Positions 8,424-41,894 are shown, counted from the stretch's first letter. The stretch: DNA of 44,197 nucleotides from Dehalococcoidia bacterium (GCA_014239685.1 JAAZYK010000001.1:1-44197), one strand, 5' to 3'. Program-made: numbers and translations. Notes: generated by a model from the letters alone, not told the origin.

Positions 8424-8711
8424 TCACTGCCTGAACCAGCCATCGGCCGCCAGGTCGTGGAACAGCGTTACCTGGCGGCCGTCGGATAAGCGGGTATGGA
8501 AATACACCCGCTCTATCTCCTTATCCAGTCCCCGCCACCATTCGTCGTTGATCTTCCACATGTCCTCGATAGCGACGACCTCATTCACCTTGTCTCTCAC
8601 AGAGACCGACGACGGCATCCCGCGTTCGTCTACATTCACTGTCACCGGAGTCGGGGCATTTAAGGGCTTAATCGCACTAGCGCGTGCCTTCGTTCCGGAA
8701 TTCGGGACCAT
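8424..8711 (-). CDS. Small protein resembling the Trp-rich C-terminal module of ImuB (possibly the DUF6504 family, recalled from memory)
   Basis: Frame open 8424..8816. The ATG at 8711 is preceded by AAGGGAG at 8-nt spacing. Motifs KPLNAPTPVTV, EDMWKINDEWWRG and RVYFHTRLSDGRQVTLFHDLAADGWF match the ...ERIExGWW...RDYF...G...WF pattern I recall at ImuB C-termini. Overlaps the imuB 3' end by 52 nt in another frame. Confidence 0.6.
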   Translation of the reverse strand: MVPNSGTKARASAIKPLNAPTPVTVNVDERGMPSSVSVRDKVNEVVAIEDMWKINDEWWRGLDKEIERVYFHTRLSDGRQVTLFHDLAADGWFRQ

Positions 8712-9847
8712 GGCTCTAACTCCCTTACCTGATAGACCGGCGGTGTTGTGTCCAGCCGTGCCTCTAGTTGATTCACCACTTCCTGCAACTTCTGATCTCG
8801 CCGGACCTCCGCCCACAGGGACTCCTGCCGACCGGCCTCGCCGGTCAGCCCGGAAAGCGTCAGGCGTATGTCCTCTATTGGCCCTGGAAGCGCCGGATCA
8901 TGCAGTTTTGATTTAATAGAAAACAGGGCCTTTGTCGGTGACCCTGCAGGCTCCTTGAACGCCACACGCATCGTCCACGGCGGTCGACGCAGGACACTCG
9001 CCTCCAACTTTGCTTCCCGTGCATACCGGCGTGTGAGTTGTGGGTGGGTGTACGCACGTGACAGGAGGATTTCGATCGCTGGGAGGATCGCCGACATGCT
9101 TACCGTGGCGTCGGGGAATTCCAAGTATTCCGAAACTGCTTCTTCCGTCTGATGTGCCACGAGAGGCCGCTGGTCGATGCCGTTCGAGAGGTCTGACATC
9201 AGCGCCCCGTCCTTGCCGAATTGCGCTTGCATTGCGCCCGGCGGCAGCGCTGCGATGTCTCCCATTGTGTGCAAGCCGAATCCATGTAGTTGTGTGGTCA
9301 GCTTGAAATCCACAGGCAACAGCTCAACCGGAAGCTTCGTGAGGAACCGGCCCGGTTCACCCGTTATCTTGAGTCCGCGCCCCGATGAACTGGCTGATGC
9401 TGCAACGTACGCCAGCCACTTGTTTTCGCCAACACCGATGCGGGCGTCGAACTGGCTCACGGCGTTGGAGAGCGCCCGGACTACATGTGCGTCGTCGCCG
9501 TATAGCCGGTCGAGACCCCAGATGCCGATGTATGCACGGCCGAGCCCGTAACTATCGGCTCTTTCCGTGTCTGGCTCCACGTCGGGACAGCGCGCCTCAA
9601 GCCCGATCAGGACTTCGCCGAATGTGTGCCTATACAGAGGCATATCCGGTTCTAGTAGAAGGACATCCTTACGGACGATAGCCAGCGCCTCGCTGAGCGG
9701 CATACCCCTGCTCATCTTTGGGCCAAGCTCGGGCGACCAGTCGAGTACCGACTGCGCACCTTTGCTGGCGATCGAACCGTTTTCGCCAACGATGATCGCT
9801 GGACGATTGACCAGTTCTGGCCGCCTGATAAACTCCACCTGCCACAT
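8660..9847 (-). CDS. imuB: ImuB-type Y-family polymerase-like protein (N-terminal and central part)
   Basis: 395 aa. RRPELVNRPAIIV start typical of Y-family/ImuB, later LHGFGLHTMGDIAALP (HhH-like) and EPWSRIPERRHAL. Position directly upstream of dnaE2. Only canonical start is the ATG at 9847, but the frame is open 39 codons further upstream (see findings). Confidence 0.85.
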   Translation of the reverse strand: MWQVEFIRRPELVNRPAIIVGENGSIASKGAQSVLDWSPELGPKMSRGMPLSEALAIVRKDVLLLEPDMPLYRHTFGEVLIGLEARCPDVEPDTERADSYGLGRAYIGIWGLDRLYGDDAHVVRALSNAVSQFDARIGVGENKWLAYVAASASSSGRGLKITGEPGRFLTKLPVELLPVDFKLTTQLHGFGLHTMGDIAALPPGAMQAQFGKDGALMSDLSNGIDQRPLVAHQTEEAVSEYLEFPDATVSMSAILPAIEILLSRAYTHPQLTRRYAREAKLEASVLRRPPWTMRVAFKEPAGSPTKALFSIKSKLHDPALPGPIEDIRLTLSGLTGEAGRQESLWAEVRRDQKLQEVVNQLEARLDTTPPVYQVRELEPWSRIPERRHALVRLSP

Positions 9848-12334: not shown

Positions 12335-12751
12335 CTAGGTAACTGGGCGCTGCCAGCCACCCAGCAGATCGCGTGTTAGTTGCTCCATGACCCGCGACAG
12401 GTTGGCGTAGGTCACTATCCCGACCAGCACGCCTGAATCGTCGACCACAGGTAGTCGGCTGACTCCGCGCTCCGCCATGACGCGCGCTGCGTCCACGGCC
12501 TCCATATCAACGCGCCCCGTGTGCACCGGGCTGCTCATGTGTCTGAACACCGGGCAGTCGTGCGGATCGTGGCCTGCCCCAAGACAGCCTGCGATCATGT
12601 CCCAGGTCGTTAGGATGCCTTCAACAGCGTCGTCTCGCATCACGACAAGCGACCCGACCGAAAGCTCTCGCATCTGGGCAGCAGCGTTCACAATCGACTG
12701 TTCGGAGCCGATCGTATATACCGTGCTGGTCATCAGATCCCTGAGCTTCAT
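12335..12751 (-). CDS. CBS-domain pair protein
   Basis: 138 aa. MKLRDLMTSTVYTIGSEQSI...LSVGSLVVM and VSRLPVVDDSGVLVGIVTYANL are typical tandem CBS motifs. GGAGG SD. Confidence 0.85.
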   Translation of the reverse strand: MKLRDLMTSTVYTIGSEQSIVNAAAQMRELSVGSLVVMRDDAVEGILTTWDMIAGCLGAGHDPHDCPVFRHMSSPVHTGRVDMEAVDAARVMAERGVSRLPVVDDSGVLVGIVTYANLSRVMEQLTRDLLGGWQRPVT

Positions 12752-13096
12752 CGGCCTTACCTCCTCGTCTATGGCGCCTTCGCACCTGGTGGCCCTACAC
12801 CCCTATTCTAGTGATTATCAGCGAACGACTTCTTGGCTGGCCTGTTTTGAGGGTCTGATTTCCGCGACAACAAATCCCCTGAAGATCGAAGGGCACCGTT
12901 CCTGTAAACCCCGAATACTTGGAATACGTGATGGAGATGCTTCATCCGCTCGTCAATGTAGCTGCATCGTATTAAGGGATACATGGACAATCTCAGGTCG
13001 ATTTGGTACTTACTAAGGACAACGCGGTATACAGTTACGCCCGCACAATTGAATCAATGAAGCATCGGAATGCCTGGCTGATCGGGGAGATGTACT

Positions 13097-17142: not shown

Positions 17143-17361
17143 GGACCGGCGAGTTGTTCCTGCATCTTCTCCTGATGGAACCTATGTTCTTGTAGCGGAG
17201 TACGTTTTTTTTACGACCTGGATTGTCGCTTAGAACGCCGTAGGGGACAGATAGAACATAAACGCAGTGGAACGATCATCGAGAGATTCCGCGCGTGCCG
17301 ACTTCGAAATGACAGATGATCCCGGCATCAACCCCATAGCTCGCCTTTTAACCATCTCAGA

Positions 17362-17405
17362 AAACATGGAAGAGGGCCGATGTGAATCAGCCCTCTTCCA
17401 TGTTT
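17362..17405. terminator. Perfect 16-bp inverted repeat with 12-nt loop between convergent genes (bidirectional terminator candidate)
   Basis: AAACATGGAAGAGGGC-cgatgtgaatca-GCCCTCTTCCATGTTT. Lies 16 nt beyond the DUF1501 stop (17421). Confidence 0.6.
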
Positions 17406-17420
17406 GCTCTAGGAGTGGAT

Positions 17421-18557
17421 TTATACGGCCGCAGCGAACGGCGAGATCTTCTCAAAGTTCCCGCCAACAATCTCCTGCGCGTCAAGTCCCAGCCAGTCTT
17501 CCAGCAGGTCCGTGTAAAGACCACGGAAATCAAAGTTGTATTGCAGGTCGCCCTCGATCAATCGGCCAACGTCCAGAGACGGGTATTCGGAGTAATGACC
17601 GCCTTTGACGGCATCTCCGATTACGAACGAAACGCCGCCCGAGCCGTGGTCGGTTCCGTTGCCGTTGTCCTTGACTCGACGACCGAACTCGGAGAACACA
17701 AGGATTGTGACCTCCGGGCCAAGATCGTGCTCTTCGAGGTCCTGATAGAAGGCGCGCAGTCCTGTAGAAACCTCTTCCCACAGGCCCCTCTGTAACGAGA
17801 GTTCATTGGTGTGCGTGTCCCATCCACCGGATGTTGTGTAAAAGACGCGGGTGCCTAGATCTGCAAAGTGAACCTGGGCGACGCCTTTAAGGGCCTTTGC
17901 GATCGGGTTGTCGGGGTACTCCACCGTCGACTCGTACATCTTCGGTGCCTGCTTGAGGATGTCGGCGCCTTTTAGTGCGTCCAAACCAGTCTTGCCCAGA
18001 TAGTCCATCACCATCCCGCTGCCGACACCTGGCGTGTAGATGCGACTGAAAGCGGTCAATGCCTTCTCACGCTGCTCTGCTCCAGACATGCCGGTCAGCA
18101 GCCCGTAGTCATCCAGATTGCCGACCGAGGCCACAGGGACGCCTGGTGCCGCTAGAGCGCGTGGGAGGCCGTTGCCAAAGTTAACGGCGGTCACCACGTT
18201 TGAGCCAGTAGGGTCCAATTGGCGAACGGCCTGACCAAGCCAGCCCTCATCACCGACTCTGTCTGGAGTCGCGGTGTGCCAGATGTCCATCGATCGAAAG
18301 TGTGATCGACTGGGGGTCGGGTAGCCGATGCCGTGAACTATGGCAACACGATCCTGATCGTAAAGCTCTTTGAACGCGCCCATTCCTGGGTTAAGTCCCA
18401 GACCATTGTCCAGAGGAATCACGTCTTCCTCGGTGATCCTGACGCCCGACCGCACGTCCTGATACATGGGATCTTCCCACGGAACGACGCAGTTCAGGTA
18501 GTCGTTACCACCTGAAAGCTGGACAATTACCAGCACCTTTTCTCTCTGCTCTGCCAT
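17421..18557 (-). CDS. DUF1501 family protein (alkaline-phosphatase/sulfatase-like fold), no signal peptide
   Basis: VLVIVQLSGGNDYLN, PSRSHFRSMDIWHT and NGNGTDHGSGG are typical DUF1501 motifs. ATG at 18557 with GGAGG 5 nt upstream (alternative ATG at 18569). No twin-arginine leader with either start. Confidence 0.85.
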   Translation of the reverse strand: MAEQREKVLVIVQLSGGNDYLNCVVPWEDPMYQDVRSGVRITEEDVIPLDNGLGLNPGMGAFKELYDQDRVAIVHGIGYPTPSRSHFRSMDIWHTATPDRVGDEGWLGQAVRQLDPTGSNVVTAVNFGNGLPRALAAPGVPVASVGNLDDYGLLTGMSGAEQREKALTAFSRIYTPGVGSGMVMDYLGKTGLDALKGADILKQAPKMYESTVEYPDNPIAKALKGVAQVHFADLGTRVFYTTSGGWDTHTNELSLQRGLWEEVSTGLRAFYQDLEEHDLGPEVTILVFSEFGRRVKDNGNGTDHGSGGVSFVIGDAVKGGHYSEYPSLDVGRLIEGDLQYNFDFRGLYTDLLEDWLGLDAQEIVGGNFEKISPFAAAV

Positions 18558-18656
18558 CGTTTCCTCCATATGGACCCGTTTGCGTCAGGGTTGTCCCGGC
18601 CATCGCTGGCGACCGGATGCCATCGTAGCGCCGTCGTCGTATTAGCGCATTAGTTT

Positions 18657-19673
18657 TTAGACAGTTTCAAATATCTGGAATCGGTGTCTGGCGGTTTCTA
18701 ACACGAGTAACCGGTTATCGCCATATGTCGTCACCGCAACCGGTACCCAGAAATAGGGTTCGGTGCGGGCCGAAACTTCGTAAGGCTCATCGACATCCAG
18801 TTTGGGGTAGGGGTTGAATGCCTCGCGAGCAATCTTTTCATCGTTGTTGGCGTTGATGTAATCAGCCGCCCACGGAGACAATCCGGCTTCACCGAGAACG
18901 ATTGTCTGGAAGTTCCAGTCCTTGTCGAAGACCTGCACACGTTGATTCTGCCAGTCGGCCACATAAATAAACCCGTCGTCATCCACGGCGACCGAAGAAG
19001 GCCGATTGAACTGACCATCTCCGTCTCCGGACTCTCCGTGCGCATCTATGAACACGCCGTCTGCTTCAAAGCGCTGGATTCTGTCGTTGCGCCAGTCGGC
19101 TACGTAGATCGTTCCGTCCGAAACTGTGGTGATGCCCCAGGGGTAGTTGAACTGGCCTTTGGCCGATCCCTCAGAACCAAACGAATCTATATATTCGCCG
19201 TCCGCTGTGTACCGCTGGATACGGTGATTCTTGTGATCTACAACAAGCAGATTGTTTTCGGCATCAAATGCCAATCCTGAAGGGCCATCAAATTCGTTCG
19301 GCCCGGAGCCGGCGGTTCCCCAGTGGCTCACGTAGTTGTTTTCCGAGTCGAAGATGGTGATCCTCTGCATCTTTTCGTCGGCAAGGAACAGGCGATCAGT
19401 GGAGTCGATCGCAATGGCGGTACCCCATTGCATCTCACCGTCGGCGGTTCCGTATCCGGAAAACTCGCCGTGCCAGTTGTGGTCGATGTCTGTGACGCTG
19501 ATGCCCGTTCCGCTGAGGGACCCTTGTCCGCTGCGACTCAAGACAAAAATAAGCCCATCTTTTCGGACAGCGAAGTCGACAGGAAAGTGGTAACCGCGAC
19601 CACCCGCGGCAGCGCCGAAGCCGTTGGTGTCTATGTACTTGAGTTGTCTTTGTTTCCGTATTCCAGTCGTCAT
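18657..19673 (-). CDS. NHL-repeat beta-propeller protein (paralogue A)
   Basis: Repeated blades ...GxGxGQFxxPxGxAxDxxGxIYVADxxNxRIQxF (e.g. VADWRNDRIQRF, VADWQNQRVQVF, VVDHKNHRIQRY). Start trimmed to the ATG at 19673 (GGAG 7 nt upstream), giving 338 aa against 337 aa for paralogue B. Confidence 0.85.
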   Translation of the reverse strand: MTTGIRKQRQLKYIDTNGFGAAAGGRGYHFPVDFAVRKDGLIFVLSRSGQGSLSGTGISVTDIDHNWHGEFSGYGTADGEMQWGTAIAIDSTDRLFLADEKMQRITIFDSENNYVSHWGTAGSGPNEFDGPSGLAFDAENNLLVVDHKNHRIQRYTADGEYIDSFGSEGSAKGQFNYPWGITTVSDGTIYVADWRNDRIQRFEADGVFIDAHGESGDGDGQFNRPSSVAVDDDGFIYVADWQNQRVQVFDKDWNFQTIVLGEAGLSPWAADYINANNDEKIAREAFNPYPKLDVDEPYEVSARTEPYFWVPVAVTTYGDNRLLVLETARHRFQIFETV

Positions 19674-19715
19674 TGGATTACTCCATGTACCGTTCTTGGC
19701 GCACCTGCACACATA

Positions 19716-21161
19716 TCAGGCAAGTTGGTACTCGCGGGTGGAGACGATCAGTTGGAGTAGGGAAGTGATCTTGCCCGCCCCATCCTCGGTCGACGGATCG
19801 ACATCACCTTGCTCACGCACAAAGGCCACGAGGCCATTGAGTGTGCCGTCTTCCACGCGCAGACGCCCCACAAGCCCAAGACAATCTTCCACCAGTGCTT
19901 CGGGTTCAACATTTCCTGACGGATGTCGGTCCCTTATCCGGCTGATTATGGCTTTAACACCTCTCTTGTTGGGCTTGCCGATGGTATCGCTGGCGAAATT
20001 AATCCGCTGGACCATTGAGCCGGTGCTAATCCAATCATCTCCGCCCATCCATCCCTCAACACTTGTCGGGCCAAGAAGCTGCTGTCCCATGTAGTTGCAG
20101 GCAGCGGTGGCCTTGTAAACGTCATCTGTCGGCCAGTCAAAGTCACCGGCCAGGCGCAGAGTGCCAACTACGACCTCTGCCGGGCTCTTGATTCTTGCGA
20201 ACCGTTTAACTTCTGACTTGAAAATGTCTGACTCAAACATCGCTCGGAGCATGGCCCCGATGCTGTAGTCGTTGGCGAAGTAAGCGTCCACCATCAATTG
20301 AATGGCCTCTGGATCCTTGGGCCCTTCGAACGGCCACTGCGGAACGGGAAGTTCGTCGGCCACAAAGTGGTGATACAGGTGGCGAGCGATGAACTGTGGA
20401 GTCGCCGGGTTCTTGCAGATGATGTCAATGACATCTTCACCCGTGAAGTTTCCGGTCTCGCCAAGGAACGTCTTCTCGCCGTCGTCGTGATCCGACTCGT
20501 CGTACTCAAACTGCCATGCAATGTAGCCGTACGGCCTGAGCGTGTTGTTTCGCATCTTTGTCGACATGTACGGCATGTTGGCGATCGTCCAACCTGTGAA
20601 CGCCCGGGCACACTCTTTGACGTCTTCTTCTGTGTAGTTGCCCACGCCCATAGCGAACAACTCGAGAATTTCACGGCCGTAGTTCTCGTTGATGTTGTCC
20701 TTGTGATTGTCCTGGTTATCCAGCCACAGGATCATCGCCGGGTCTTTGGATAGCTGTACGAGAAGTTCACGGAAGCTGCCGAGGCCGTACTTACGGAACA
20801 TGTCTATCTGGCTGATCATGACCTTGCCCTGGATCACCTTCGTCTGTCCCGTGGCAAACACACGGTGCCAGAACAGGGCGATCTTCTCTTCGAATGGCGT
20901 CTTGGTGGTCACCAGTCGGTACATCCAGAACGAGCCGGATGACGGCGGAATGCGCAGGTCGTTATGGTCTGCGTGATACCGGCGAATCAGGTCCACAGGC
21001 AACGGATCTGCGTCACCCGGGTTGAACAGCTGATCAAGCGTTCCTTCGTAGCCGAGCTCGCCCGCTTCCTCAAGTTCTCCAGGGGTCGGCCCGAACCCTG
21101 TCCGGCGCAGCAAATGCGCGATTAGGTCAAGTTCGGTTCCGATATTCGTAGCGGTAGCCAT
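19716..21161 (-). CDS. DUF1800 family protein (paralogue A)
   Basis: AHLLRRTGFGPT hallmark. ORF 19716..21230 trimmed to the ATG at 21161 (GGAGG 8 nt upstream). No signal peptide. Confidence 0.85.
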   Translation of the reverse strand: MATATNIGTELDLIAHLLRRTGFGPTPGELEEAGELGYEGTLDQLFNPGDADPLPVDLIRRYHADHNDLRIPPSSGSFWMYRLVTTKTPFEEKIALFWHRVFATGQTKVIQGKVMISQIDMFRKYGLGSFRELLVQLSKDPAMILWLDNQDNHKDNINENYGREILELFAMGVGNYTEEDVKECARAFTGWTIANMPYMSTKMRNNTLRPYGYIAWQFEYDESDHDDGEKTFLGETGNFTGEDVIDIICKNPATPQFIARHLYHHFVADELPVPQWPFEGPKDPEAIQLMVDAYFANDYSIGAMLRAMFESDIFKSEVKRFARIKSPAEVVVGTLRLAGDFDWPTDDVYKATAACNYMGQQLLGPTSVEGWMGGDDWISTGSMVQRINFASDTIGKPNKRGVKAIISRIRDRHPSGNVEPEALVEDCLGLVGRLRVEDGTLNGLVAFVREQGDVDPSTEDGAGKITSLLQLIVSTREYQLA

Positions 21162-21276
21162 GTAACAGCCTCCAGATATTGTCCTGAATTGTACCGTGAA
21201 CGCGATAACCTTCAAACCATCGCCACACAATCAATTCAACTGTGCATGTCCGTGCTTACGAAATCAGTCGCTCGGA

Positions 21277-22290
21277 CTAGACCTTCTCGTACACTTGGAA
21301 TCGGTGTCTGCCGGTCTCTAGGACCAAGATCCGGGTGTTGTCGTACAAAGCGATCGATACCGGGTCCCAAAAATAGGGCTCCGTCCGGGCCGAAACTTCG
21401 TGGGGATCGTCCACATCAAGTTCCGGATAAGGGTTGAAGGTAGACCTAGCTTCTTTTTCGTCAGCGTTGGCGTCTATGTACTCGGCCGCCCACACAGACA
21501 GTTCGCCGGCACCACGGATACTCGTCTGGAAGTTCCAGTCTTTATCGAAAACCTGGACACGCTGATTGGCCCAGTCGGCTACGAAAATGTTTCCGTCTTC
21601 GTCAACGGCAGTATTGGAAGGTCGGTTGAACTGGCCTTCGCCGTCACCCGACGTACCGTGGGCGTCGATGAATTTACCTTCGTGAGTGAACCGCTGGATG
21701 CGATCATTGCGCCAGTCTGCGACATAAATCACACCGTCCGGCGCAACCGTGACGCCCCAAGGGAAGCTGAACTCTCCATTTCCATCACCGGGGGAACCGA
21801 ACGAATTCAGATACTTACCGTCCGGCGTGTAGCGTTGGATGCGCTGATTCTTGTCATCCACCACGAGAAGGTTTCCGTCACGGTCAAAAGCTATACCAGA
21901 CGGTCCGTCGAATTCGCCCTTGCCGGACCCCTCGGTCCCCCAGTGAGATTCGTAGTTGTGGTCGGCATCGAAGATGGTGATGCGGTGAAGCACTTCGTCG
22001 GCCATGAACAGCCGGTCGCTGGCGTCGAAAGCGATCGCCGTCGCAGAGATGAACTGCCCGGGCGCGGTCCCGCGCCTGGAGATCTCTTCGAACCAGTTGT
22101 GGTCGATATCCGTGATTTTGATGCCGTTGCCGCCCTGAACCGCGTCGCCGCGGCTCAAGACATATATCCGGCCGTCACTTCGCACCGCGAGATCCACAGG
22201 AAGGTAGTAGCCGCGCCCGCCTTGTGCAGCGCCGAATCCGTTTGTGTCGCGGTACTCGAGGCCAAGCCTGGGCCCAGTTTCGGTTGCCAT
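21277..22290 (-). CDS. NHL-repeat beta-propeller protein (paralogue B)
   Basis: 337 aa, collinear with 18657-19673. Shared runs VADWRNDRIQRF, QRVQVFDKDWNFQT and EVSARTEPYFW. Confidence 0.88.
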   Translation of the reverse strand: MATETGPRLGLEYRDTNGFGAAQGGRGYYLPVDLAVRSDGRIYVLSRGDAVQGGNGIKITDIDHNWFEEISRRGTAPGQFISATAIAFDASDRLFMADEVLHRITIFDADHNYESHWGTEGSGKGEFDGPSGIAFDRDGNLLVVDDKNQRIQRYTPDGKYLNSFGSPGDGNGEFSFPWGVTVAPDGVIYVADWRNDRIQRFTHEGKFIDAHGTSGDGEGQFNRPSNTAVDEDGNIFVADWANQRVQVFDKDWNFQTSIRGAGELSVWAAEYIDANADEKEARSTFNPYPELDVDDPHEVSARTEPYFWDPVSIALYDNTRILVLETGRHRFQVYEKV

Positions 22291-22352
22291 AATTCAACTG
22301 CTCCGTAACGATCCTGACTGCCTCTGGCTGTTATGAGGAATCGGATTCAGGA

Positions 22353-23825
22353 TTAGACCAACTGGTACTCGCGGGTCGACACTATCAACTGAAGGACCGA
22401 AACGATCTTGTCCACTCCATCATTGGTGCGGGGGTCTATATCGCCCTGTTCCGTTGCGTACGTGACGATCCCTTCCTTAGTTTCATTTTCTAGCCTGAGT
22501 GAACCGACAAGTTCCAGACAATCATCCACGAGGGCTTTAGGTGCTACGAGTCCTCGAGGGTGACGGTCAGAAATCTGATCGAGGATCGATTTAATGCCCT
22601 TTTTGGTGGGATCACCGACCGTGGCGCTTGCGAAGTTGATCCGTTGCACCATTGAACCGGTGCTTATCCAGTCATCGCCGCCCATCCAACCCTCGACGCT
22701 TACAGGTGCCAACAATGCTTGGCCCATAAAGCCGCAGGCGGCGGTCGCTTTGAAGATATCTGCGGTCGGCCAGTCAAAGCCGCCGGCGAGTCGTAATGTT
22801 CCGACCACAAGCTCGACAGGGCTTTTGATGCGGGCGTACTGAGTGGCCTCTGACTTGAACATCTCGGACTCGAACACCGCTCGCAACATGGCGCCGATGC
22901 TGTAGTCGTTGGCGAAGTAGGCGTCGACCATAAGTTCGATCGCTTCAGGATCCTTCGGACCCTCGAACGGCCACTGAGGCACGGGGAGCTCGTCGGCGAT
23001 GAAGTGGTGGTATAGGTGGCGTGCTATGAACCGTGCGGTGGCCGGGTTCTTACAGATGATGTCGATGATGTCATCGCCGTTGAAGTTGCCAGTCTCACCC
23101 AAAAACGTCTTCTCACCCTCATCATGATCTTCAGGGTCGAATTTATACTGCCAGGCGACGTATCCGTACGGGCGCAACGTGTTGTTGCGCATCCTGATCG
23201 ACATGTACGGCATGTTCGCGATCGTCCAACCGGTAAAAGCTCGCGAGCATTCTTTAATGTCTTCCTCCGAATAGTTGCCGACGCCCATGGCGAACAACTC
23301 GAGGATTTCTCGTCCGTAGTTCTCGTTAATGTTGTCCTTGTGGTTGTCCTGGTTGTCCAGCCACAAAATCATCGCCGGGTTCTGGGAGAGCTGGACGAGC
23401 AGGTCTCGGAAACTGCCGAGACCAAACTGCCTGAACATCTCGATTTGGGTGAGCATTACTTTGCCCTGAATCAACTTGGTCTGACCCGTGGCAAAGATGC
23501 GATGCCAGAACAGCGCGATTTTTTCTTCAAACGGCGTCTTCGTAGTCGACATCCGGTACATCCATACCGATCCCGATGACGGAGCGATCTGTGTAATCGA
23601 CTGGTCGGGATGGTACCTACGGATGATGTCCGAAGGCATCGACTCTGGGTCGCCCGGGTTGAAGAGAAGGTCGAGCGTCCCCTGGTAACCGAGATCGCCG
23701 GCAGCCTGAAGCTCTTCCCACGTTGCGCCAAACCCTGCGCGTCGCAACAGATGGGCAATGAGCTCGGTGTCGGTTCCGGATTTTGCGGCGGTAGTCAAGA
23801 TCAACGTCTCCCGGGCTTCACCCAA
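22353..23825 (-). CDS. DUF1800 family protein (paralogue B)
   Basis: AHLLRRAGFGAT. Long identical runs with paralogue A (AMILWLDNQDNHKDNINENYGREILELFAMGVGNY, VEGWMGGDDWISTGSMVQRINFAS). TTG start at 23825 has no SD; a TTG at 23798 behind GGGAG is an alternative. Confidence 0.85.
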   Translation of the reverse strand: MGEARETLILTTAAKSGTDTELIAHLLRRAGFGATWEELQAAGDLGYQGTLDLLFNPGDPESMPSDIIRRYHPDQSITQIAPSSGSVWMYRMSTTKTPFEEKIALFWHRIFATGQTKLIQGKVMLTQIEMFRQFGLGSFRDLLVQLSQNPAMILWLDNQDNHKDNINENYGREILELFAMGVGNYSEEDIKECSRAFTGWTIANMPYMSIRMRNNTLRPYGYVAWQYKFDPEDHDEGEKTFLGETGNFNGDDIIDIICKNPATARFIARHLYHHFIADELPVPQWPFEGPKDPEAIELMVDAYFANDYSIGAMLRAVFESEMFKSEATQYARIKSPVELVVGTLRLAGGFDWPTADIFKATAACGFMGQALLAPVSVEGWMGGDDWISTGSMVQRINFASATVGDPTKKGIKSILDQISDRHPRGLVAPKALVDDCLELVGSLRLENETKEGIVTYATEQGDIDPRTNDGVDKIVSVLQLIVSTREYQLV

Positions 23826-23918
23826 ATGAGTTAATGAGTTGGGCGGATTGTAACGGTTGGTTGGGAAGCTTCAAACTCGTGTCACTTTCGATGGGTATCG
23901 GACCAAATGGTCAAGTTA

Positions 23919-26532: not shown

Positions 26533-28071
26533 CTATTTACCGTTTTTGATGAAGTCGGCGACCCGTTCTCCGATCATGATGATCGTGGCATTCGTGTTGG
26601 CGCGGATGCAGTCCGGCATTACCGAGCCATCTGCCAAGCGAAGGCCCTCAACGCCTCGTACACGGCAGTACTGGTCCAAAACCGCCATTTCGTCTGAAGA
26701 TGGCCCCATCTTCGCTGTCCCCGAGATATGGTGCATCGTCTCTACGTTGCGCATCATCCACGCATCTAACGTTTCATCCGTCACGACATCGGCTGGCGCC
26801 GGATCTATAAGGGCGCCGATGATCGGTTCGAAAGCTTTGTGTTCCGAAAGGCGAAGATTCAGCCGCACTCCATCACGCAAACGTTTTATGTCGGACGGAT
26901 CGTCCAAGAAGTTGTAGTTGAGGGATGGTTGGACAGACACATCGGGAGAAGTAAGCCGTAGTTCTCCCGAAGATTTCGCTAGATAAAGCCCGGCGCTCAT
27001 CACAATGAGCCTTTCTGGAGAGTTCCAGCGCATGACCGTAATCATGTCGTTGCGTTGGTTCGAGTCCGTCGCCGTGTACCGGAGAGCGACTTTCTGGGGT
27101 CCGATATCGGCGCCGGGCATCTGAAAGTCATCTTTCGCGTTCCAGCGCGTGTGGACCGTGACGTGATCGCGTAGGTTCTGCCCCACCCCGGGGGAGTCCA
27201 GGACAACCGGTATGTCAAACTCTCGAAGGTGTGCCGCAGGTCCGATGCCAGATAACATCAGCAATTGAGGGCTAGCAATTGGGCCAGTGGACAAAATTAT
27301 CTCGTTGCCTGTAACGGTGAAGGTCTCCCCTCCGGATTCCACCACTACCCCGGATGCTCGGTGGCCGTCGAAAACAACCTTATGAGCCGTACAGTTTGGT
27401 CTTATGGTGAGGTTGATGCGGTGCCGCGCCTGCGACAGGTAACCAATGCTGGTGCTCCACCGGATGTCATTTGGATTGTTCAAGGGTAGGGGGCCGATGC
27501 CGGTGGAATCCGGATCGTTGTGATCTGGGCTATCGGCAAAACCAGCGTCCCGGCAAGCGTCAGTGAATGCCGCCTGGTCATTCATCAATTCATCCGGCAT
27601 GAAGCGACGAACCATGATCGGCCCGTCGTTGCCGTGATAGTCGCCGGAATAGTTAGTGTCGGTCTCTATCTTGTTCAAGTACGGGAACACCTTCTCGTAC
27701 GCCCACTGTTCGTTGCCCCGTGATGCCCAGCCGTCGAAATCTTCAGGCAGGCCACGCAGAAAAACGGATCCGTTGATGGCACTCGTTCCTCCAGTGACGC
27801 GTCCCCGTGGGACACGCATGGGAGGGGATGTGGCTGTCGCGGTGCCGGTGAACTGCCAGTCGTGGTCTCCGCCTACGGCAGAGTTGAGGCCGATTCCAAG
27901 GTCTGTCCCGGTGCCGTGATTGAATTTGACGTCATCTGGAAGTGAGTCGATGTTCGGGTAATCCGGCCCGGCTTCCAGTAGCAAAACGCTAAGGTTTGGG
28001 TCTTCTGAAAGTCTTGTCGCAACGGTCGCTCCGCCGGAGCCAGATCCAACAACTATGACGTCGTAATTCAC
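26533..28071 (-). CDS. GMC-family FAD oxidoreductase (choline-dehydrogenase-like), paralogue 1
   Basis: GTG start with GGGAGAA SD. YDVIVVGSGSGGATVATRLSED, GGTSAINGSVFLRG, HHISGTAKMG and LRLADGSVMPDCIRANTNAT. Confidence 0.9.
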   Translation of the reverse strand: MNYDVIVVGSGSGGATVATRLSEDPNLSVLLLEAGPDYPNIDSLPDDVKFNHGTGTDLGIGLNSAVGGDHDWQFTGTATATSPPMRVPRGRVTGGTSAINGSVFLRGLPEDFDGWASRGNEQWAYEKVFPYLNKIETDTNYSGDYHGNDGPIMVRRFMPDELMNDQAAFTDACRDAGFADSPDHNDPDSTGIGPLPLNNPNDIRWSTSIGYLSQARHRINLTIRPNCTAHKVVFDGHRASGVVVESGGETFTVTGNEIILSTGPIASPQLLMLSGIGPAAHLREFDIPVVLDSPGVGQNLRDHVTVHTRWNAKDDFQMPGADIGPQKVALRYTATDSNQRNDMITVMRWNSPERLIVMSAGLYLAKSSGELRLTSPDVSVQPSLNYNFLDDPSDIKRLRDGVRLNLRLSEHKAFEPIIGALIDPAPADVVTDETLDAWMMRNVETMHHISGTAKMGPSSDEMAVLDQYCRVRGVEGLRLADGSVMPDCIRANTNATIIMIGERVADFIKNGK

Positions 28072-28248: not shown

Positions 28249-29769
28249 CTAACAGTCTCCCTTGATAAAATCAGCTACGCGCTCGCCGATCATGATGACC
28301 GTGGCGTTTGTATTTGCTCGCACGCAGTCAGGCATCACGGATGCGTCGGCTACTCGAAGTCCGTTGACGCCCTTAACACGGCAGTATTGGTCAACTACGG
28401 CTAACTTGTCGGAATCCGGGCCCATTTTTAACGTGCCAGTGATGTGGTGCATCGTCGTAACGTTTCGTCTTATCCATGCATCTAGCGCCTTGTCAGTCGT
28501 GATGTCGCCGACAGCGGGGTCCAGCAACGGGCCGAGGATAGAGGCGAATGATTTATGTCGCGCGAGACGAATATTAAGTAGCACGCCAGCGCGTAAGCGC
28601 TCGATGTCGGATTGATGAGCTAGGTAGTTGTAGTCGAGAAATGGGTGAACGGATACGTCTTGGGAAGTCAGACGCAATTCACCGCTAGAACGTGCCATGT
28701 ATAAGCCTGCGCTCATCATCACGATTTGTTCTGGCGATTTCCAACGGATCATCGTGAGCATGTCGTTGCGGAGACTCGAGCCTTCCGCTGTGTAGCGAAG
28801 AGCTACATTTTGTGGGCCCTGGTCACCCACAGGCATCGGCAAACTTTCTTTGGCCCGCCATTTCTGATGCACCGTTGCGTGATCGCGAAGATTTTGTCCG
28901 ACGCCCGGCGAATCGACCAAGACAGGGATTCCAAACGCTGTGAGATGTGTAGCCGGGCCTATGCCGGACACCATCAACAGCTGAGCGCTGGATATTGTTC
29001 CCGCGCACAGGATGATTTCATCTCCCGAAACGGTAAATGTCTCTCCCAAAGATTTCACGATAACGCCGGTTGTTCTGTGCCCATCGAAAATAAGATTCTG
29101 TGCCGTGCAATTAGCCCTGATCGTGAGATTCAGGCGGGGCCTGGCTTCCGACAGGTAAGCGATGCTGGTGCTCCATCGGATTAAATCTGGATTGTTATGT
29201 GGCGATGGTCCGACTCCGGTGGAGTCAGGCAGGTTGTGGTCAAGACTGTCCGGGAAGCCCGCGTCTAGACACGCGTCATACAAAGCAATTTGTTCAGCCA
29301 TGAGCTCATCGCGCATGAATCTTCGTACGATTACAGGACCATCTGAACCATGAAAATCACCTGAATAATCGGTGTCGGTTTCTATCTTGTTGAAGTAGGG
29401 GAACACCTTGTTGTGCGACCACTCGTCATTGCCCCATGAAGCCCAGTCGTCGAAATCTTCAGGCAAACCTCGCAAGAAGACAGAACCATTAATTGCACTG
29501 GTTCCACCTGTGACCTTGCCTCGAGGTACTGGCATGGGCGGTGCTTCGGCGGTGGCGTTCCCGGTGTACTGCCAGTCATGTTCCCCGCCAACAGCCAGGT
29601 CTGTACCGGTCCCATGATTGAACTTGAGATCAAACGGAAGGGTGTCTATATCCGGATAGTCGGGCCCAGCTTCCAGAAGTAGAACGCTGCGACTCGGGTC
29701 CTCCGATAACCTTGCAGCGACGGTTGCCCCGCCGGATCCAGCTCCGACAACAATGACGTCGTACTTCAA
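28249..29769 (-). CDS. GMC-family FAD oxidoreductase, paralogue 2
   Basis: TTG start with GGGGGA SD. Collinear with 26533-28071 (YDVIVVGAGSGGATVAARLSED, HHITGTLKMG, VADASVMPDCVRANTNAT). Confidence 0.9.
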   Translation of the reverse strand: MKYDVIVVGAGSGGATVAARLSEDPSRSVLLLEAGPDYPDIDTLPFDLKFNHGTGTDLAVGGEHDWQYTGNATAEAPPMPVPRGKVTGGTSAINGSVFLRGLPEDFDDWASWGNDEWSHNKVFPYFNKIETDTDYSGDFHGSDGPVIVRRFMRDELMAEQIALYDACLDAGFPDSLDHNLPDSTGVGPSPHNNPDLIRWSTSIAYLSEARPRLNLTIRANCTAQNLIFDGHRTTGVIVKSLGETFTVSGDEIILCAGTISSAQLLMVSGIGPATHLTAFGIPVLVDSPGVGQNLRDHATVHQKWRAKESLPMPVGDQGPQNVALRYTAEGSSLRNDMLTMIRWKSPEQIVMMSAGLYMARSSGELRLTSQDVSVHPFLDYNYLAHQSDIERLRAGVLLNIRLARHKSFASILGPLLDPAVGDITTDKALDAWIRRNVTTMHHITGTLKMGPDSDKLAVVDQYCRVKGVNGLRVADASVMPDCVRANTNATVIMIGERVADFIKGDC

Positions 29770-29873: not shown

Positions 29874-31412
29874 TTAATTCGGGGCTGTATCCCCTACGAC
29901 ACGCACTCGCACCCGAAGTGCGTCGCCCGGTACGTATGAAAGTGGCAAATCTTCCACCTCCACGACGGATAGTGTTTCTGAATCGGCACCCGCAAGGACG
30001 GTACGTTTTTTGGCTAATTCCGTGGCCGCCTCGATAGATGCCGTTCGACCCATCTCGGTAAAGACCTGATCTACTTCGCCACTTACCTGGGCGATTGCAG
30101 CCCCAACCGCGTTAGCGACCCCACGATGTTCGACCTGAATCACTTCGGAAATCCCAGATAGTTGGGCCGGAACTAGAAATGCGCCTCCCCCGACCGCGAT
30201 CAGTGGAACCGGGTTGGCATCGACCTTCATCCTGTCAACGGCTTCATCGACCATCTCAGCTATTCGGCTCATGGCGGCGTCCTGCACCGATGGTTCTAGA
30301 GATTCCACGGCAGTAGTATCGCCAAGTTTGATTAAACCAGCCGCTGAGGCAACGTCTGTGGCAGTCAAGGTATCGCCACCAAACACAAGCGCTTCTGTGG
30401 TGATCCGATGTCCGACGCTGACCGGCCCAATGGAAGAACCACCTGCTTGCACGACAGAACCTCCTCCGAGTCCCACTGAAAGCAGGTCTGGCATTCGGAA
30501 AAGCGTGCGGACTCCACCGATTTCGACTACGTTATTGGCCTCACGGGGGAAACCTGCTTGTAGCACCCCTACGTCTGTGGTGGTGCCACCCACATCGATA
30601 ACAATTCCGTCGTTGAGCCCCGTCAAAAAGGCGGCTCCCCGCATACTGTTCGTCGGTCCCGATGCGAAGCTGTAAATAGGGAACTCTGCGGCGAATTCGG
30701 CCCGCATCACGGTGCCATCGTTTTGTGTCATATAGAGCGGTGCTTGTATGCCACTTTGGCCAAGCGCCCTAGTGAAAGCGCGAGTGGTTTTACGGGCAAG
30801 ATCGATGATGCAGGCATTCAGGAGTGTGGCGTTCTCACGCTCCAACAGGCCAATGCGTCCTAGATCGTGAGAGAGAGTGATGTCCACTCCTGGGCATTCC
30901 TGTCGGACTATCTCGCCTGCAGCCTCTTCACACTCCGCGGTTAATGGCGAAAAGACGCTCGCTATTCCGACAGACGTGATACCTGACTCAGCGATCTCCC
31001 GTGCCGCTTTTCGCATTTCCTCGACATCGAAATCGACAATAGGGCGCCCATCATATTCGTGTCCACCTTTGATCATGAAAACGCGTCCACGAACGATCCT
31101 CGCAAGATCATCGGGCCAGTCCACAAATGGCGGAAGAGATGCACTTGCAGGAAGACCGATACGTACGGCGGCGACAGGTTTTAGATCGCGCCGTTGTATC
31201 ACGGCGTTGGTGAAATGCGTGGTTCCGATCATCACGGCATCGATTCGCCCGGGACCTTCATCCATCCCCGACACAAGATCCTTCAAAGCATTCAAAATGC
31301 CGCCGGTGACATCCTCTGTGGTTGGCGTTTTGACCCCGGCAACCACAGAGTCATCTTGGATCAAGACAGCGTCCGTGTTAGTTCCCCCGACATCTATTCC
31401 GATACGCCTCAT
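29874..31412 (-). CDS. Hydantoinase/oxoprolinase A-type (HyuA-like, ASKHA-fold) protein
   Basis: MRRIGIDVGGTNTDAVLI, IVIDVGGTTTDVG. Start overlaps the DUF917 stop (ATGA). Confidence 0.88.
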   Translation of the reverse strand: MRRIGIDVGGTNTDAVLIQDDSVVAGVKTPTTEDVTGGILNALKDLVSGMDEGPGRIDAVMIGTTHFTNAVIQRRDLKPVAAVRIGLPASASLPPFVDWPDDLARIVRGRVFMIKGGHEYDGRPIVDFDVEEMRKAAREIAESGITSVGIASVFSPLTAECEEAAGEIVRQECPGVDITLSHDLGRIGLLERENATLLNACIIDLARKTTRAFTRALGQSGIQAPLYMTQNDGTVMRAEFAAEFPIYSFASGPTNSMRGAAFLTGLNDGIVIDVGGTTTDVGVLQAGFPREANNVVEIGGVRTLFRMPDLLSVGLGGGSVVQAGGSSIGPVSVGHRITTEALVFGGDTLTATDVASAAGLIKLGDTTAVESLEPSVQDAAMSRIAEMVDEAVDRMKVDANPVPLIAVGGGAFLVPAQLSGISEVIQVEHRGVANAVGAAIAQVSGEVDQVFTEMGRTASIEAATELAKKRTVLAGADSETLSVVEVEDLPLSYVPGDALRVRVRVVGDTAPN

Positions 31413-32506
31413 GTTTGAGCTCCATCAACGAACACAGACCTGAACTCCATATCGTATCCGAACGCCCGCGGCCCAACGTTTTGAAGGCCACGCTCGGAAG
31501 TCAATATCGACGCCGCGGGCAGGGCTATCACGGAGACGCGCTGACCGTAGCGAAGTGTCTCGGTGCCGATCGCCTCGCCGGATAGCGTGTCCATTACACA
31601 GATAATCTCCGGCACCGTGGCCGCTGGTTTACCATCCAAGAGTCCGATGGTGAATTCGTTCTGGAATTCCAACCGAAACTCGTGGCCGGCGTTTTCATCA
31701 AGCCCGTCGATCGCGGCCGAGCCGCGCAGGAATCCCTCGGTCGCCCGTCTGTCTATATCCGTGATCTTCCCGCGGAACAACAGTATTCCGCCTTCTTGAT
31801 CCAGTGCCGCCGCCACCGGGTCTTCATGCGCGGCACGGGCGGCCTCGACGGCGTGACCGAGTTCGATGGCCCTTGTTGTGGTGTAGAGAATGCCCCAGTC
31901 CTTGACTTCTTTGCCGGAACGGGGCGCTTTGCATGTAGAGGCCACCGAACCCACTTCGGTACAGATCTTCCGACTGATCCGCTCCATCCACTTCCAGCTC
32001 GCGGCTCGGGCGACGATCGTCTCGTTATCCCGGATGTCGGCCAGGCAGAGCGGGAACATCTGGAGATCTCCAATGGCAAAACTTGTCATTTGAGCTTCGG
32101 GGAACGCACGGCCCATCGAGTCAGCATCGACCACCGGAAGCCCGGTCACGGCCGCCACCATAAGGGGCTGCAGGGCGTTGCCGCCGCCGATTTCCAGAGA
32201 CATGACGGCATTAAATTTGCGTCCGAGGTACTCCTCCATCATCCGGACGGGTTTGGCGGCGAAATCAGGATCCCGCAAGCGCTCTTGCCCAACCAGAGGC
32301 GCTCCCATGCTGGAAACGACCGCTACGAGATCGTCATCGCCCAACGTCATCGGGTCGATCAGTGTGACCCGCTTGTTCGCCTTGTACATCTCCCGCATGT
32401 TCAGATACGAGTAGTAAGGGCTTCCGCCGCCGCCTGCGCCAAGGATCCAAGCTCCGGTGGAGAGAGCGGTCAGTTCGGCGGTCTCAATCTCTCTGGAATC
32501 AACCAT
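31409..32506 (-). CDS. DUF917 family protein (usual partner of HyuA-like proteins)
   Basis: ORF 31409..32629 trimmed to the ATG at 32506 (MVDSREI...), which overlaps the upstream crotonase stop by 8 nt (ATGGTTGA). GAWILGAGGGGSPY motif. Confidence 0.8.
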   Translation of the reverse strand: MVDSREIETAELTALSTGAWILGAGGGGSPYYSYLNMREMYKANKRVTLIDPMTLGDDDLVAVVSSMGAPLVGQERLRDPDFAAKPVRMMEEYLGRKFNAVMSLEIGGGNALQPLMVAAVTGLPVVDADSMGRAFPEAQMTSFAIGDLQMFPLCLADIRDNETIVARAASWKWMERISRKICTEVGSVASTCKAPRSGKEVKDWGILYTTTRAIELGHAVEAARAAHEDPVAAALDQEGGILLFRGKITDIDRRATEGFLRGSAAIDGLDENAGHEFRLEFQNEFTIGLLDGKPAATVPEIICVMDTLSGEAIGTETLRYGQRVSVIALPAASILTSERGLQNVGPRAFGYDMEFRSVFVDGAQT

Positions 32507-33356
32507 TCGACTCTGACTCGTTTCGTTTTGATGCTTGAAGCGCCTCGTAGTTGTCGAACGCCCGCTGGACCATCGGCCGTCGTCTTCCTTCTGGCTGCTG
32601 CAGAGCGTATCCCGGGTCGCTTTCACCAAGCGAACTCAGGTTGAAGAGTGGGAAGGCGCCCTGAATATGCTGGGTGAAACCCTGGGCGTCTTGCATCTGG
32701 TTGATCGCAAGTTTGATCATCCGCAACTGGAACGGATCGTTCGCCGCCACGCGCGCTGCGTATGCCATCGACTCTTCTTCAAGTTTCTCCTTCGGAAACA
32801 CCCGGTTCACGTAGCCAAGATCCAGCGCCTCCTGAGCGTCCACGAACCGACTCTCAAACAGGATCTCTCGGGCCTTACGGTGATGCATTTCCCAAGGCAC
32901 CGAGAAGTACTGGAAATTGGCCGGGAGGAACATGGCGTCTTCAGCGGCGAACACCACGTCCATCGCTGACGAGATGATCCATCCAGCGAAGATACAGTAA
33001 CCCTGAACGGCGGCGATGGTGGGCTTGGGAAGATTGCGCCAGCGTAAGGATTTATCGATGTTTTGGTCAAACCCTCGCCTGTACTTGCCTCGGAGTCCCT
33101 CCTCGATGGGACGCAGTTCACGGTCTGCCATCTCTTCCGGTGTTCCCAGATCGTGGCCTGCCGAGAAGTGGTCGCCTCCGCCCGCAAGGACTATCGCCCC
33201 GATACTGTCGTCCTCGCCCGCATACGCGAAAGCGTGGTCCAGCTCTTCCAGCAGGATGCGGCTCTGGGCGTTACGGTACCTCGGCCGATTGAGAACGATC
33301 CGAGCAACCCGCCCGTGCTGCTCGTAAATGATCTGTTTGTAGTCGCTGGGTGGCAT
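32499..33356 (-). CDS. Crotonase-fold (enoyl-CoA hydratase/isomerase family) protein
   Basis: ARIVLNRPRYRNAQ, AIVLAGGGDHFSAGHDLG, AAVQGYCIFAGWIISSAMDVVFA. GGGAG SD. Confidence 0.85.
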   Translation of the reverse strand: MPPSDYKQIIYEQHGRVARIVLNRPRYRNAQSRILLEELDHAFAYAGEDDSIGAIVLAGGGDHFSAGHDLGTPEEMADRELRPIEEGLRGKYRRGFDQNIDKSLRWRNLPKPTIAAVQGYCIFAGWIISSAMDVVFAAEDAMFLPANFQYFSVPWEMHHRKAREILFESRFVDAQEALDLGYVNRVFPKEKLEEESMAYAARVAANDPFQLRMIKLAINQMQDAQGFTQHIQGAFPLFNLSSLGESDPGYALQQPEGRRRPMVQRAFDNYEALQASKRNESESNG

Positions 33357-41886: not shown

Positions 41887-41894
41887 GTTCGGAT

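Follow-up and report, generated by a model that had tools for sequence, protein, structure and literature searches.

For some twenty years no function has been assigned to the large and widespread families of the DUF1800 and DUF1501 proteins, one reason being that the canonical members depend on twin-arginine translocation (Tat) for their export. The DUF1800-DUF1501 gene pair (PMC5122149) and the DUF1501 modules of the Planctomycetes-Verrucomicrobia-Chlamydiae (PVC) bacteria (PMC3542564; Kamneva et al. 2012) are known as conserved systems, the function of which is unassigned. In SAR202 bacteria, COG3391, COG4102 and COG5267 were found among the 50 most abundant COGs and were described as correlated 'uncharacterized' families, named beside COGs for dipeptide transport (Dpp); the gene module itself was not described (Saw et al. 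2020; PMC6946804). Here we analyze a stretch of 44,197 nucleotides from a Dehalococcoidia bacterium (GCA_014239685.1 JAAZYK010000001.1:1-44197), the whole of which is called the window, and in particular the five-gene feature at positions 17421-23825, in which a DUF1800 gene and a gene for an NHL-repeat protein occur twice and are accompanied by one DUF1501 gene. Judged from sequence, this leaderless DUF1800-NHL-DUF1501 form is a variant of the known DUF1800-DUF1501 system, with the families and core motifs kept and the leader and the adjacency of the two partners lost. Searches of the literature on the triad, and on SAR202 together with NHL repeats, gave no account of the leaderless NHL-containing form, of the duplication of the pair or of its distribution. 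The first-pass annotation of this DNA had stated that no function was described for the arrangement, which holds for the module as such and needs the amendment that its COGs had been noted as correlated by Saw et al. (2020).

The five genes lie in succession on the minus strand, in the order DUF1800(B) (22353-23825, 490 amino acids), NHL(B) (21277-22290, 337 amino acids), DUF1800(A) (19716-21164), NHL(A) (18657-19673) and DUF1501 (17421-18569, 382 amino acids). The likely start of DUF1800(A) is the ATG at 21164 (MATATN), with a longest open reading frame (ORF) reaching to 21230 (504 amino acids), and that of NHL(A) lies at 19673 (MTTGIRK), with a longest ORF to 19712 (351 amino acids). Both starts are backed by orthologue alignments, in which the N-terminus of DUF1800(A) aligns with its orthologues. 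With these starts the intergenic gaps are 62, 112, 42 and 87 nt, within the range of about 40-115 nt given in the first-pass annotation, and its gene order, with DUF1800-NHL present twice and DUF1501 once, agrees with both ORF calls and Pfam. Profile searches assign all three families: the DUF1800 proteins score 344.3 and 348.9 bits against PF08811 (cut-off 26.1) over positions 1-419 of 419 (E 1.6e-102 for copy B and 6.1e-104 for copy A), the NHL proteins 107.8 and 118.2 bits against PF01436 (cut-off 20; E 1e-31 for copy B and 5e-35 for copy A), and DUF1501 scores 82.8 bits against PF07394 (cut-off 27; E 3.7e-23) over profile positions 201-334 of 390 only, its N-terminal motifs being alignable with those of canonical members. 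No signal peptide, Tat motif or membrane helix is present in any of the five proteins, even as longest ORFs, and the highest value of a 19-residue Kyte-Doolittle window is 1.31. DUF1501 starts just 11 residues ahead of its first core strand. The 'RRAGFG' of DUF1800 is a conserved motif of the mature domain with no hydrophobic stretch after it.

For comparison, canonical loci were found by a protein search of plasmids and chromids, as DUF1501 relatives of 29-35% identity. Seven of them were read (Thermus, Chondrinema, Persicobacter, Azospirillum, Rhizobium, Paraburkholderia and Miltoncostaea), a set that spans Thermus, Bacteroidota, Proteobacteria and Actinomycetota. In each, DUF1800 is directly followed by DUF1501 without an NHL gene, and a clear twin-arginine leader (MDRREFLRKSLLALALG and MKRRDFIKTSGLVSAMGL being examples) stands at the head of the DUF1501 protein, as the earlier remark that DUF1501 is typically Tat-bearing would have it. 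Six canonical DUF1800 proteins could be scored, of which four intact ones and the Thermus copy, split by an insertion sequence (IS), are without signal, the sixth, from Paraburkholderia (L090), having a Sec-type signal. The Thermus copy, on plasmid 4 of Thermus thermophilus (L086, 1000-3005), is interrupted by an IS982 transposase and stands next to an intact Tat-bearing DUF1501 gene. In the 'hitchhiker' mode of Tat export a partner without signal is carried along in a folded complex. Because most canonical DUF1800 proteins lack a signal and their DUF1501 partners carry a Tat leader, the simplest reading, by analogy, would be that canonical DUF1800 travels with DUF1501 as a folded complex.

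The locus in the window shares with the canonical operon both Pfam families, the position of DUF1800 upstream of DUF1501 on one strand, the DUF1501 motifs D23, RSH (88-90), DTH (251-253), SEFGR and GTDHG, and the DUF1800 motifs FWH, NENY.RE..EL and ARAFTGW. It differs in that an NHL gene follows DUF1800, that in its subfamily DUF1501 comes after NHL, upstream of DUF1800 or not at all, that DUF1501 is without Tat leader, and that the DUF1800-NHL unit may be duplicated or lack DUF1501. The PVC modules of DUF1501 with PSCyt1/PSCyt2/PSD1 (PMC3542564) offer a second comparison: they too combine a constant DUF1501 with a larger variable partner, are multi-copy and rearranged, and have no assigned function, whereas they are directed to the Tat or Sec pathway and have, in place of DUF1800 and NHL, a partner protein with a cytochrome-c motif. 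No PSCyt1, PSCyt2 or PSD1 domain was found in the window or in the sampled neighbours, the sole PSD trace being a sub-threshold PSD2 match in DUF1800 (E 0.18).

The distribution of the module was surveyed through the NHL protein, the family of which comprises 2,202 clusters at E <= 1e-10, with proteins of about 335-345 amino acids, the best 120 covering at least 95% of the query. A scan with the NHL alignment, using one genome per species, gave at least 585 relatives; 80 loci were kept, and in a total of 85 loci (designated by L numbers) all ORFs were scored with profiles made from alignments of the three families. Nearly all of the 80 kept loci are from Dehalococcoidia, SAR202 or Chloroflexota assemblies, and four are from Entotheonella (L030, L035, L052 and L082); the closest is that of a Dehalococcoidia assembly (L007, 94% identity). 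The module is thereby widespread both in SAR202 of the deep ocean and among bacteria that live with sponges. The module must be multi-copy in some genomes at least, since UBA1123 contributes three loci and another genome two. In the neighbourhoods read for three NHL hits, close relatives (NHL 83% identical; one named Dehalococcoidia by NCBI) have the five-gene set and share its flanking genes, and two distant contigs of 3.3 and 3.6 Mb (NHL 57-58% identical) have a single DUF1800-NHL-DUF1501 triad in other surroundings. Since flanking genes vary in this way among loci, the module is autonomous.

In 84 of the 85 loci DUF1800 is found on the strand of NHL and upstream of it, and for 81 of 97 NHL genes it is no further than 400 nt away; the synteny proposed earlier is thus not unique to the genome of the window. 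DUF1501 occurs in 68 of the 85 loci, about 46 of which have it downstream of the pair and about 22 upstream. The most frequent arrangement is DUF1800-NHL-DUF1501 (41 loci), followed by DUF1501-DUF1800-NHL and DUF1800-NHL only (15 loci each, three of the latter on truncated contigs), DUF1501-DUF1800-NHL-DUF1800-NHL (five loci and L085), the arrangement of the window (four loci and the window itself) and four singletons (L041, L058, L062 and L067). DUF1800 and NHL are separated by a median of about 60 nt, and NHL and a following DUF1501 by about 76 nt; where DUF1501 comes first, about 520 nt lie between it and DUF1800. DUF1800-NHL, with the shortest gap, is therefore the tightest unit.

The lack of a leader extends to the whole subfamily. 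In each of the three families, the stretch by which the longest ORFs precede the start of the profile has a median of 0-1 residues. For DUF1501, at most 13 residues are added in 57 of 70 relatives, and the longer extensions of the remaining ones contain no twin arginine with a hydrophobic leader; most of the 94 DUF1800 and 98 NHL genes have no room for a leader either, and the few long extensions contain no twin arginine with a hydrophobic stretch. The first-pass claim that no leader exists under any plausible start is borne out by these data, both in the window and beyond it. It could be argued that the proteins are exported after all, by an unrecognized route or because starts were miscalled, as the canonical system is extracytoplasmic and, to our knowledge, the envelope biology of SAR202 is poorly known. 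With no room for a leader in most of these genes, even as longest ORFs, we consider export highly improbable. At the level of predicted proteins, a leaderless, soluble state, with NHL directly after DUF1800, is established for Dehalococcoidia/SAR202 and Entotheonella.

Some loci show further rearrangements within the module. Genes of the PaREP1 family (about 95-125 amino acids; PF05942, E 4.6e-20 for L017) are inserted in several genomes, either between DUF1800 and NHL or just past NHL (L005, 7056-7990; L012, 8011-8361; L017, 6148-6516; L021, 8023-8752; L024, 7975-8334; L025, 8878-9231). Loci L042-L048 and L057 have a DUF1800 subclade without the PVPQWP insertion (see below) and no DUF1501 nearby. 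Four of them (L042, L043, L046 and L048) carry a 3-hydroxyisobutyrate-dehydrogenase-like gene on the opposite strand between DUF1800 and NHL, L042 and L048 also have a split thiamine pyrophosphate enzyme and a methyltransferase nearby, and in L044 a transposase and other genes occupy the DUF1800-NHL gap.

The two DUF1800-NHL pairs of the window are the product of an old duplication. The copies are collinear, with 365 of 480 residues identical (76%) in a gap-free alignment of the DUF1800 proteins and 224 of 338 (66%) for the NHL proteins, and all six long identical runs quoted in the first-pass annotation are present. At the DNA level, identity is only 45-48% at the third codon position and 77-88% at positions 1 and 2. 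Judging from these values, synonymous sites are near saturation and both copies are under purifying selection. Because third-position identity is low while that of positions 1 and 2 stays high, the duplication must be old, as had been proposed, and this divergence rules out an assembly artefact or a recent event. L001 and L007 likewise have two pairs, of which the first is the orthologue of the window's B pair (DUF1800 88-96%, NHL 83-94% identity) and the second that of its A pair (DUF1800 88-98%, NHL 74-94%), with A and B being 75-78% (DUF1800) and 65-71% (NHL) identical inside any of these genomes; the duplication is therefore older than their split. A separate tandem type is found in the group of L055, where the two pairs are about 51% (DUF1800) and 41% (NHL) identical and fall in different DUF1800 subclades, so that tandem pairs have arisen at least twice. 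Double matches to DUF1501 or DUF1800 in L041 and L085 were discarded as duplicates, since they are single genes with a frameshift, each seen as two overlapping ORF pieces in different frames (L041, 5147-6968, DUF1800; L085, 4127-5289, DUF1501). These could be pseudogenes or assembly errors.

DUF1501 itself is duplicated in none of the 10 other tandem loci. It is also the most conserved of the three proteins, with a mean identity of 60.6% as compared to 56.7% for DUF1800 and 50.4% for NHL, and across all loci the pairwise identities of NHL track those of the adjacent DUF1800 at r = 0.91, as compared to about 0.80 for each of them with DUF1501. The first-pass annotation had suggested that two DUF1800-NHL specificity pairs share one DUF1501 core. 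The sharing fits, because DUF1501 is never duplicated, pairs occur without an adjacent DUF1501, and DUF1501 is the most conserved component. The other parts of the suggestion, namely a physical assembly, the 'specificity' role and the chemistry, are matters that we infer, as are the residue roles and the substrate class discussed below.

Residues that are invariant in leaderless and Tat-bearing DUF1501 proteins alike are D23 (in GGND), R88-S89-H90-F91, D251-T-H253, S293-E-F-G-R297, N302 and G305-T-D-H-G309; the GGND and GTDHG motifs pointed out earlier are thus present and invariant. A sequence and profile search of the PDB with DUF1501 gave no match to a solved structure, and NCBIfam has no model for DUF1800 or DUF1501. 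The AlphaFold2 (AF2) model of DUF1501, with a mean predicted local distance difference test (pLDDT) of 73.8 and a predicted template-modelling score (pTM) of 0.81, points to the fold of the sulfatase/alkaline phosphatase superfamily: Foldseek places it nearest to carrageenan and glycan sulfatases, choline sulfatase, phosphonate monoester hydrolase, YejM and LtaS, with a best hit of E 1.6e-5, probability 1.0 and a template-modelling (TM) score of 0.42 for a model of this pLDDT. The predicted fold resembles that of S1 sulfatases, phosphonate monoester hydrolase, LtaS, YejM and EptA-type transferases (Foldseek E about 1e-5). Enzymes of the alkaline phosphatase/sulfatase superfamily have their nucleophile where the helix behind a central strand begins. 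The model places S89 at such a helix start, and an Asp after the first strand and a DHG motif are further points of likeness. What sets DUF1501 apart is the lack of a match at the sequence level, a TM score of only about 0.4, and the absence of the formylglycine motif Cys/Ser-x-Pro-x-Arg, the corresponding segment being G-Y-P-T-P-S-R-S-H-F with Pro at the formylglycine position. On the basis of the model, S89 is a candidate nucleophile, and D23, D307 and H308, which correspond to the usual metal ligands, are candidates for that role.

DUF1800 is modelled as an all-helical protein (mean pLDDT 75.7, pTM 0.81) for which Foldseek found no fold match in the PDB (best E 0.3, TM 0.13), and sequence and profile searches of the PDB gave nothing meaningful. 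A weak likeness to a phycobilisome-linker repeat (Glr1262, E 0.08) occurs at about residues 22-60 of DUF1800(B) (LAHLLRRAGFG...GYEATVD.LL). This is a short motif and not homology of the whole protein, and it probably explains the 'ApcE homology' claimed for DUF1800 proteins of Entotheonella (PMC12981691). A conserved insertion of 22 residues, from N204 to W225, is found in NHL-linked DUF1800 proteins; of the two canonical proteins aligned, that of Chondrinema lacks it and that of Azospirillum has part of it. Among the insertions, NMPYMSIRMRNNTLRPYGYVAW is present in all NHL-linked members and PVPQWP in one subclade. The N204-W225 segment forms a low-confidence loop in the AF2 model and may be a partner-binding or interface loop.

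These properties of DUF1800 bear on the idea that it serves, together with NHL, as a maturation or chaperone factor for DUF1501, like the cytoplasmic helpers of other Tat substrates. An all-helical protein that lacks a signal in five of the six scorable canonical cases (four intact copies and the IS-split one) would suit such a role, and since DUF1501 is without formylglycine motif, its modification or metal loading would need another route. We nevertheless find it improbable, as the Sec-type signal of the Paraburkholderia protein implies a periplasmic role, DUF1800 is large (about 480 amino acids) with many invariant polar residues, DUF1800-NHL pairs persist without a nearby DUF1501, and two diverged helper pairs for one enzyme would be hard to explain.

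The NHL protein is strongly similar in its repeats to known NHL propellers (TRIM71, TRIM2, TRIM3, ScyF and SMP-30/gluconolactonase), with an E value of 9.4e-68 against the TRIM71 NHL domain in the PDB, and is probably a six-bladed propeller. It differs from these proteins in being a stand-alone, predicted cytoplasmic protein of 337 amino acids, and in two features limited to its own family, a GGRG motif in the N-terminal part and an insert in the C-terminal part (about residues 255-310). When the C-terminal 88 amino acids were searched against 1.84 billion representatives, full-length matches occurred only in proteins of about 335-345 amino acids or fragments; in long multi-repeat proteins the match was limited to the last blade. 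Scores against the ScyF equivalog NF035926 (181.3 and 159 bits) are below the cut-off of 350 bits, and those against the SMP-30/gluconolactonase family PF08450 (SGL), at 47.4 and 39.4 bits, exceed the cut-off of 26.3 with partial coverage. A role as a Zn-dependent lyase, like peptidylglycine amidating lyase, was rejected because the protein has no set of three conserved histidines.

The reading that we favour, possible in our view though somewhat short of probable, is that the genes encode a catabolic enzyme module of the cytoplasm, with one DUF1501 held in common by DUF1800-NHL pairs that diversify. The module would be derived from the widespread Tat-exported DUF1800-DUF1501 system and would now be cytoplasmic. 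DUF1501 would be the catalytic subunit, a one-metal enzyme of the alkaline phosphatase/sulfatase superfamily without formylglycine motif that acts on sulfate, phosphate or similar ester groups by cleavage or transfer. The substrate-recognizing or adaptor part would consist of DUF1800 and the NHL protein that co-evolves with it, and through duplication of this pair a single DUF1501 would acquire several specificities. The substrates would be small organic solutes, imported via Dpp/Opp-type ATP-binding cassette (ABC) transporters and passed on to the surrounding oxidoreductase and coenzyme A (CoA)-dependent catabolic genes. A bolder version, which we regard as rather doubtful, is a cytoplasmic three-subunit enzyme with interchangeable DUF1800-NHL specificity modules on a DUF1501 core, representing new chemistry by which SAR202 and Entotheonella de-esterify or cleave imported refractory organic matter. 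If that were true, it would concern a DUF1800 fold without solved relatives and, in SAR202, one of the most abundant bacterial groups of the deep ocean.

Several observations weigh against the favoured reading. The AF2 models are of moderate quality (pLDDT 74-76), and the loops proposed to form the active site (residues 87-91 and 299-307) are modelled with low confidence. The gaps of about 60-80 nt leave the genes without translational coupling, and no DUF1800-NHL or NHL-DUF1501 fusions were found among the top 120 homologues per protein or among 151 representatives with the C-terminal NHL insert. In about a dozen untruncated loci DUF1800-NHL occurs without DUF1501 nearby. No substitute enzyme of the alkaline phosphatase family stands beside the pair in loci without DUF1501, the adjacent genes being unrelated (cyclase, RNase J, helicase, transposase, substrate-binding protein), so the DUF1800-NHL pair may work alone. 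In view of its partial SGL match, the NHL protein could itself be an enzyme. Most loci are without an adjacent transporter, and the substrate class is a guess.

Part of this evidence agrees with the main alternative explanation, in which the three proteins are separate enzymes for successive steps on one imported substrate (NHL, for instance, as a propeller of the lactonase or lyase type), forming no complex and being adjacent only for co-regulation. The uncoupled gaps, the lack of fusions, the position of DUF1501 before or after the pair or its occasional absence, and the match of NHL to a lactonase family (47.4 vs 26.3 bits, partial) would all fit, as would the neighbouring Gfo/Idh/MocA dehydrogenases, enolase-superfamily proteins and HpcH aldolases, such as occur in sugar-acid pathways. 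Separate enzymes would not be expected, on the other hand, to have identities that track at r = 0.91, as DUF1800 and NHL do, or to co-duplicate always. The canonical DUF1800 proteins, mostly signal-less beside a partner with a Tat leader, suggest a pre-formed complex, and the 22-residue insertion linked to NHL is modelled with the low confidence expected of an interface loop. We therefore consider this explanation rather unlikely. If the favoured reading of variable DUF1800-NHL pairs with a constant DUF1501 is correct, bacterial catabolism would gain a further, new case of modular specificity, and both the canonical periplasmic system and the PVC DUF1501 modules would for the first time become approachable. 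Because the version described here is soluble, has no leader and comes with a fixed third partner, expression and in vitro assembly tests should be easier. Since the families are abundant in SAR202 (PMC6946804), their function also bears on the turnover of refractory dissolved organic carbon in the deep ocean.

The genes around the module are largely catabolic. In the window, one flank contains two acyl-CoA dehydrogenases, two glucose-methanol-choline (GMC) oxidoreductases, a hydantoinase-A/S-Me-THD pair, enoyl-CoA hydratases, four family III CoA-transferases, short-chain dehydrogenases and luciferase-like monooxygenases, and the other a CoA-transferase and an enoyl-CoA hydratase; these flanking genes are common to close relatives only. 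Over the 85 loci, the recurrent neighbours are Dpp/Opp-type ABC permeases (18 and 16 loci), SBP_bac_5 binding proteins (about 12), Gfo/Idh/MocA oxidoreductases (8 and 5) and flavin mononucleotide (FMN)-dependent hydroxy-acid dehydrogenases (7), next to acyl-CoA dehydrogenases, CoA-transferases, GMC oxidoreductases, luciferase-like and enolase-superfamily proteins. The array SBP_bac_5-permease-permease-DUF1800-NHL-DUF1501-Gfo/Idh/MocA, with co-directional genes and tight spacing, is found in eight species, and from its layout it looks like one operon. In the SBP_bac_5 protein before the module of L018 (1117-3273, plus strand), near-identical repeats (ETVVQTVVVEKEV...) make up a long region at the N-terminus, which may be a surface tether.

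This context is of importance for the possibility that the module has a non-catabolic role, for example in storage, in protection against stress or in the handling of metals or minerals. In Entotheonella, the 15 most abundant proteins of the vesicle fraction that mineralizes arsenic and barium include two DUF1800 proteins (PMC12981691), and Entotheonella carries the module in the four loci mentioned above. A search for cluster membership gave no accession that links the DUF1800 proteins of these vesicles to the NHL-linked subfamily, and the neighbours in SAR202 are overwhelmingly catabolic genes and importers, which makes a non-catabolic role quite improbable. No PADLOC defence model matches DUF1800, NHL or DUF1501.

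With respect to transcription, an intrinsic terminator is very likely present on the minus strand at 17355-17414, between the convergent DUF1501 and CoA-transferase genes. It starts 6 bases past the stop codon of DUF1501 and consists of a perfect 20-bp stem followed by a U-run, with a stability of -40.4 kcal/mol (z = -7.1) that was equalled by none of 200 shuffled sequences, and it is possibly bidirectional. Sub-threshold Rfam matches to 'miRNA' precursors on both strands of 17355-17414 were discarded, as they represent this hairpin, and the Rfam scan of the window revealed no riboswitch or other RNA. Promoter-like elements of the type TTGAAG-16-TACAAT, with identical hexamers and spacing, occur on the minus strand at matching relative positions 5' of DUF1800(B) (23847-23874) and DUF1800(A) (21188-21215). 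Such sites are no more numerous in the region than chance would give, and their assignment as promoters is suggestive only; the duplicated DUF1800-NHL unit may have included its own promoter.

Some other features of the window deserve mention. A gene for a DnaE-type polymerase III alpha subunit (4884-8390, minus strand, 1168 amino acids) is located beside a gene for an impB/mucB/samB protein, which is Y-family-like (8660-9847, minus strand). This cassette resembles the imuB-dnaE2 mutagenesis pair and could encode an error-prone polymerase; no imuA-like gene was identified. Two ORFs of 258 and 179 amino acids (2301-3077, minus strand, and 12477-13016, plus strand) gave no Pfam match at E <= 1e-4. 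The GMC oxidoreductase genes are tandem paralogues (26533-28071 and 28249-29769, minus strand), and the hydantoinase-A gene (29874-31412) overlaps the S-Me-THD-like (DUF917-type) gene (31409-32629) by 4 nt, also on the minus strand. Finally, the plus strand carries at 40921-43579 the genes for CofD and CofC, which serve the biosynthesis of coenzyme F420, and after them one for a luciferase-like monooxygenase, an arrangement that fits with the presence of F420-dependent enzymes among the nearby luciferase-like paralogues.

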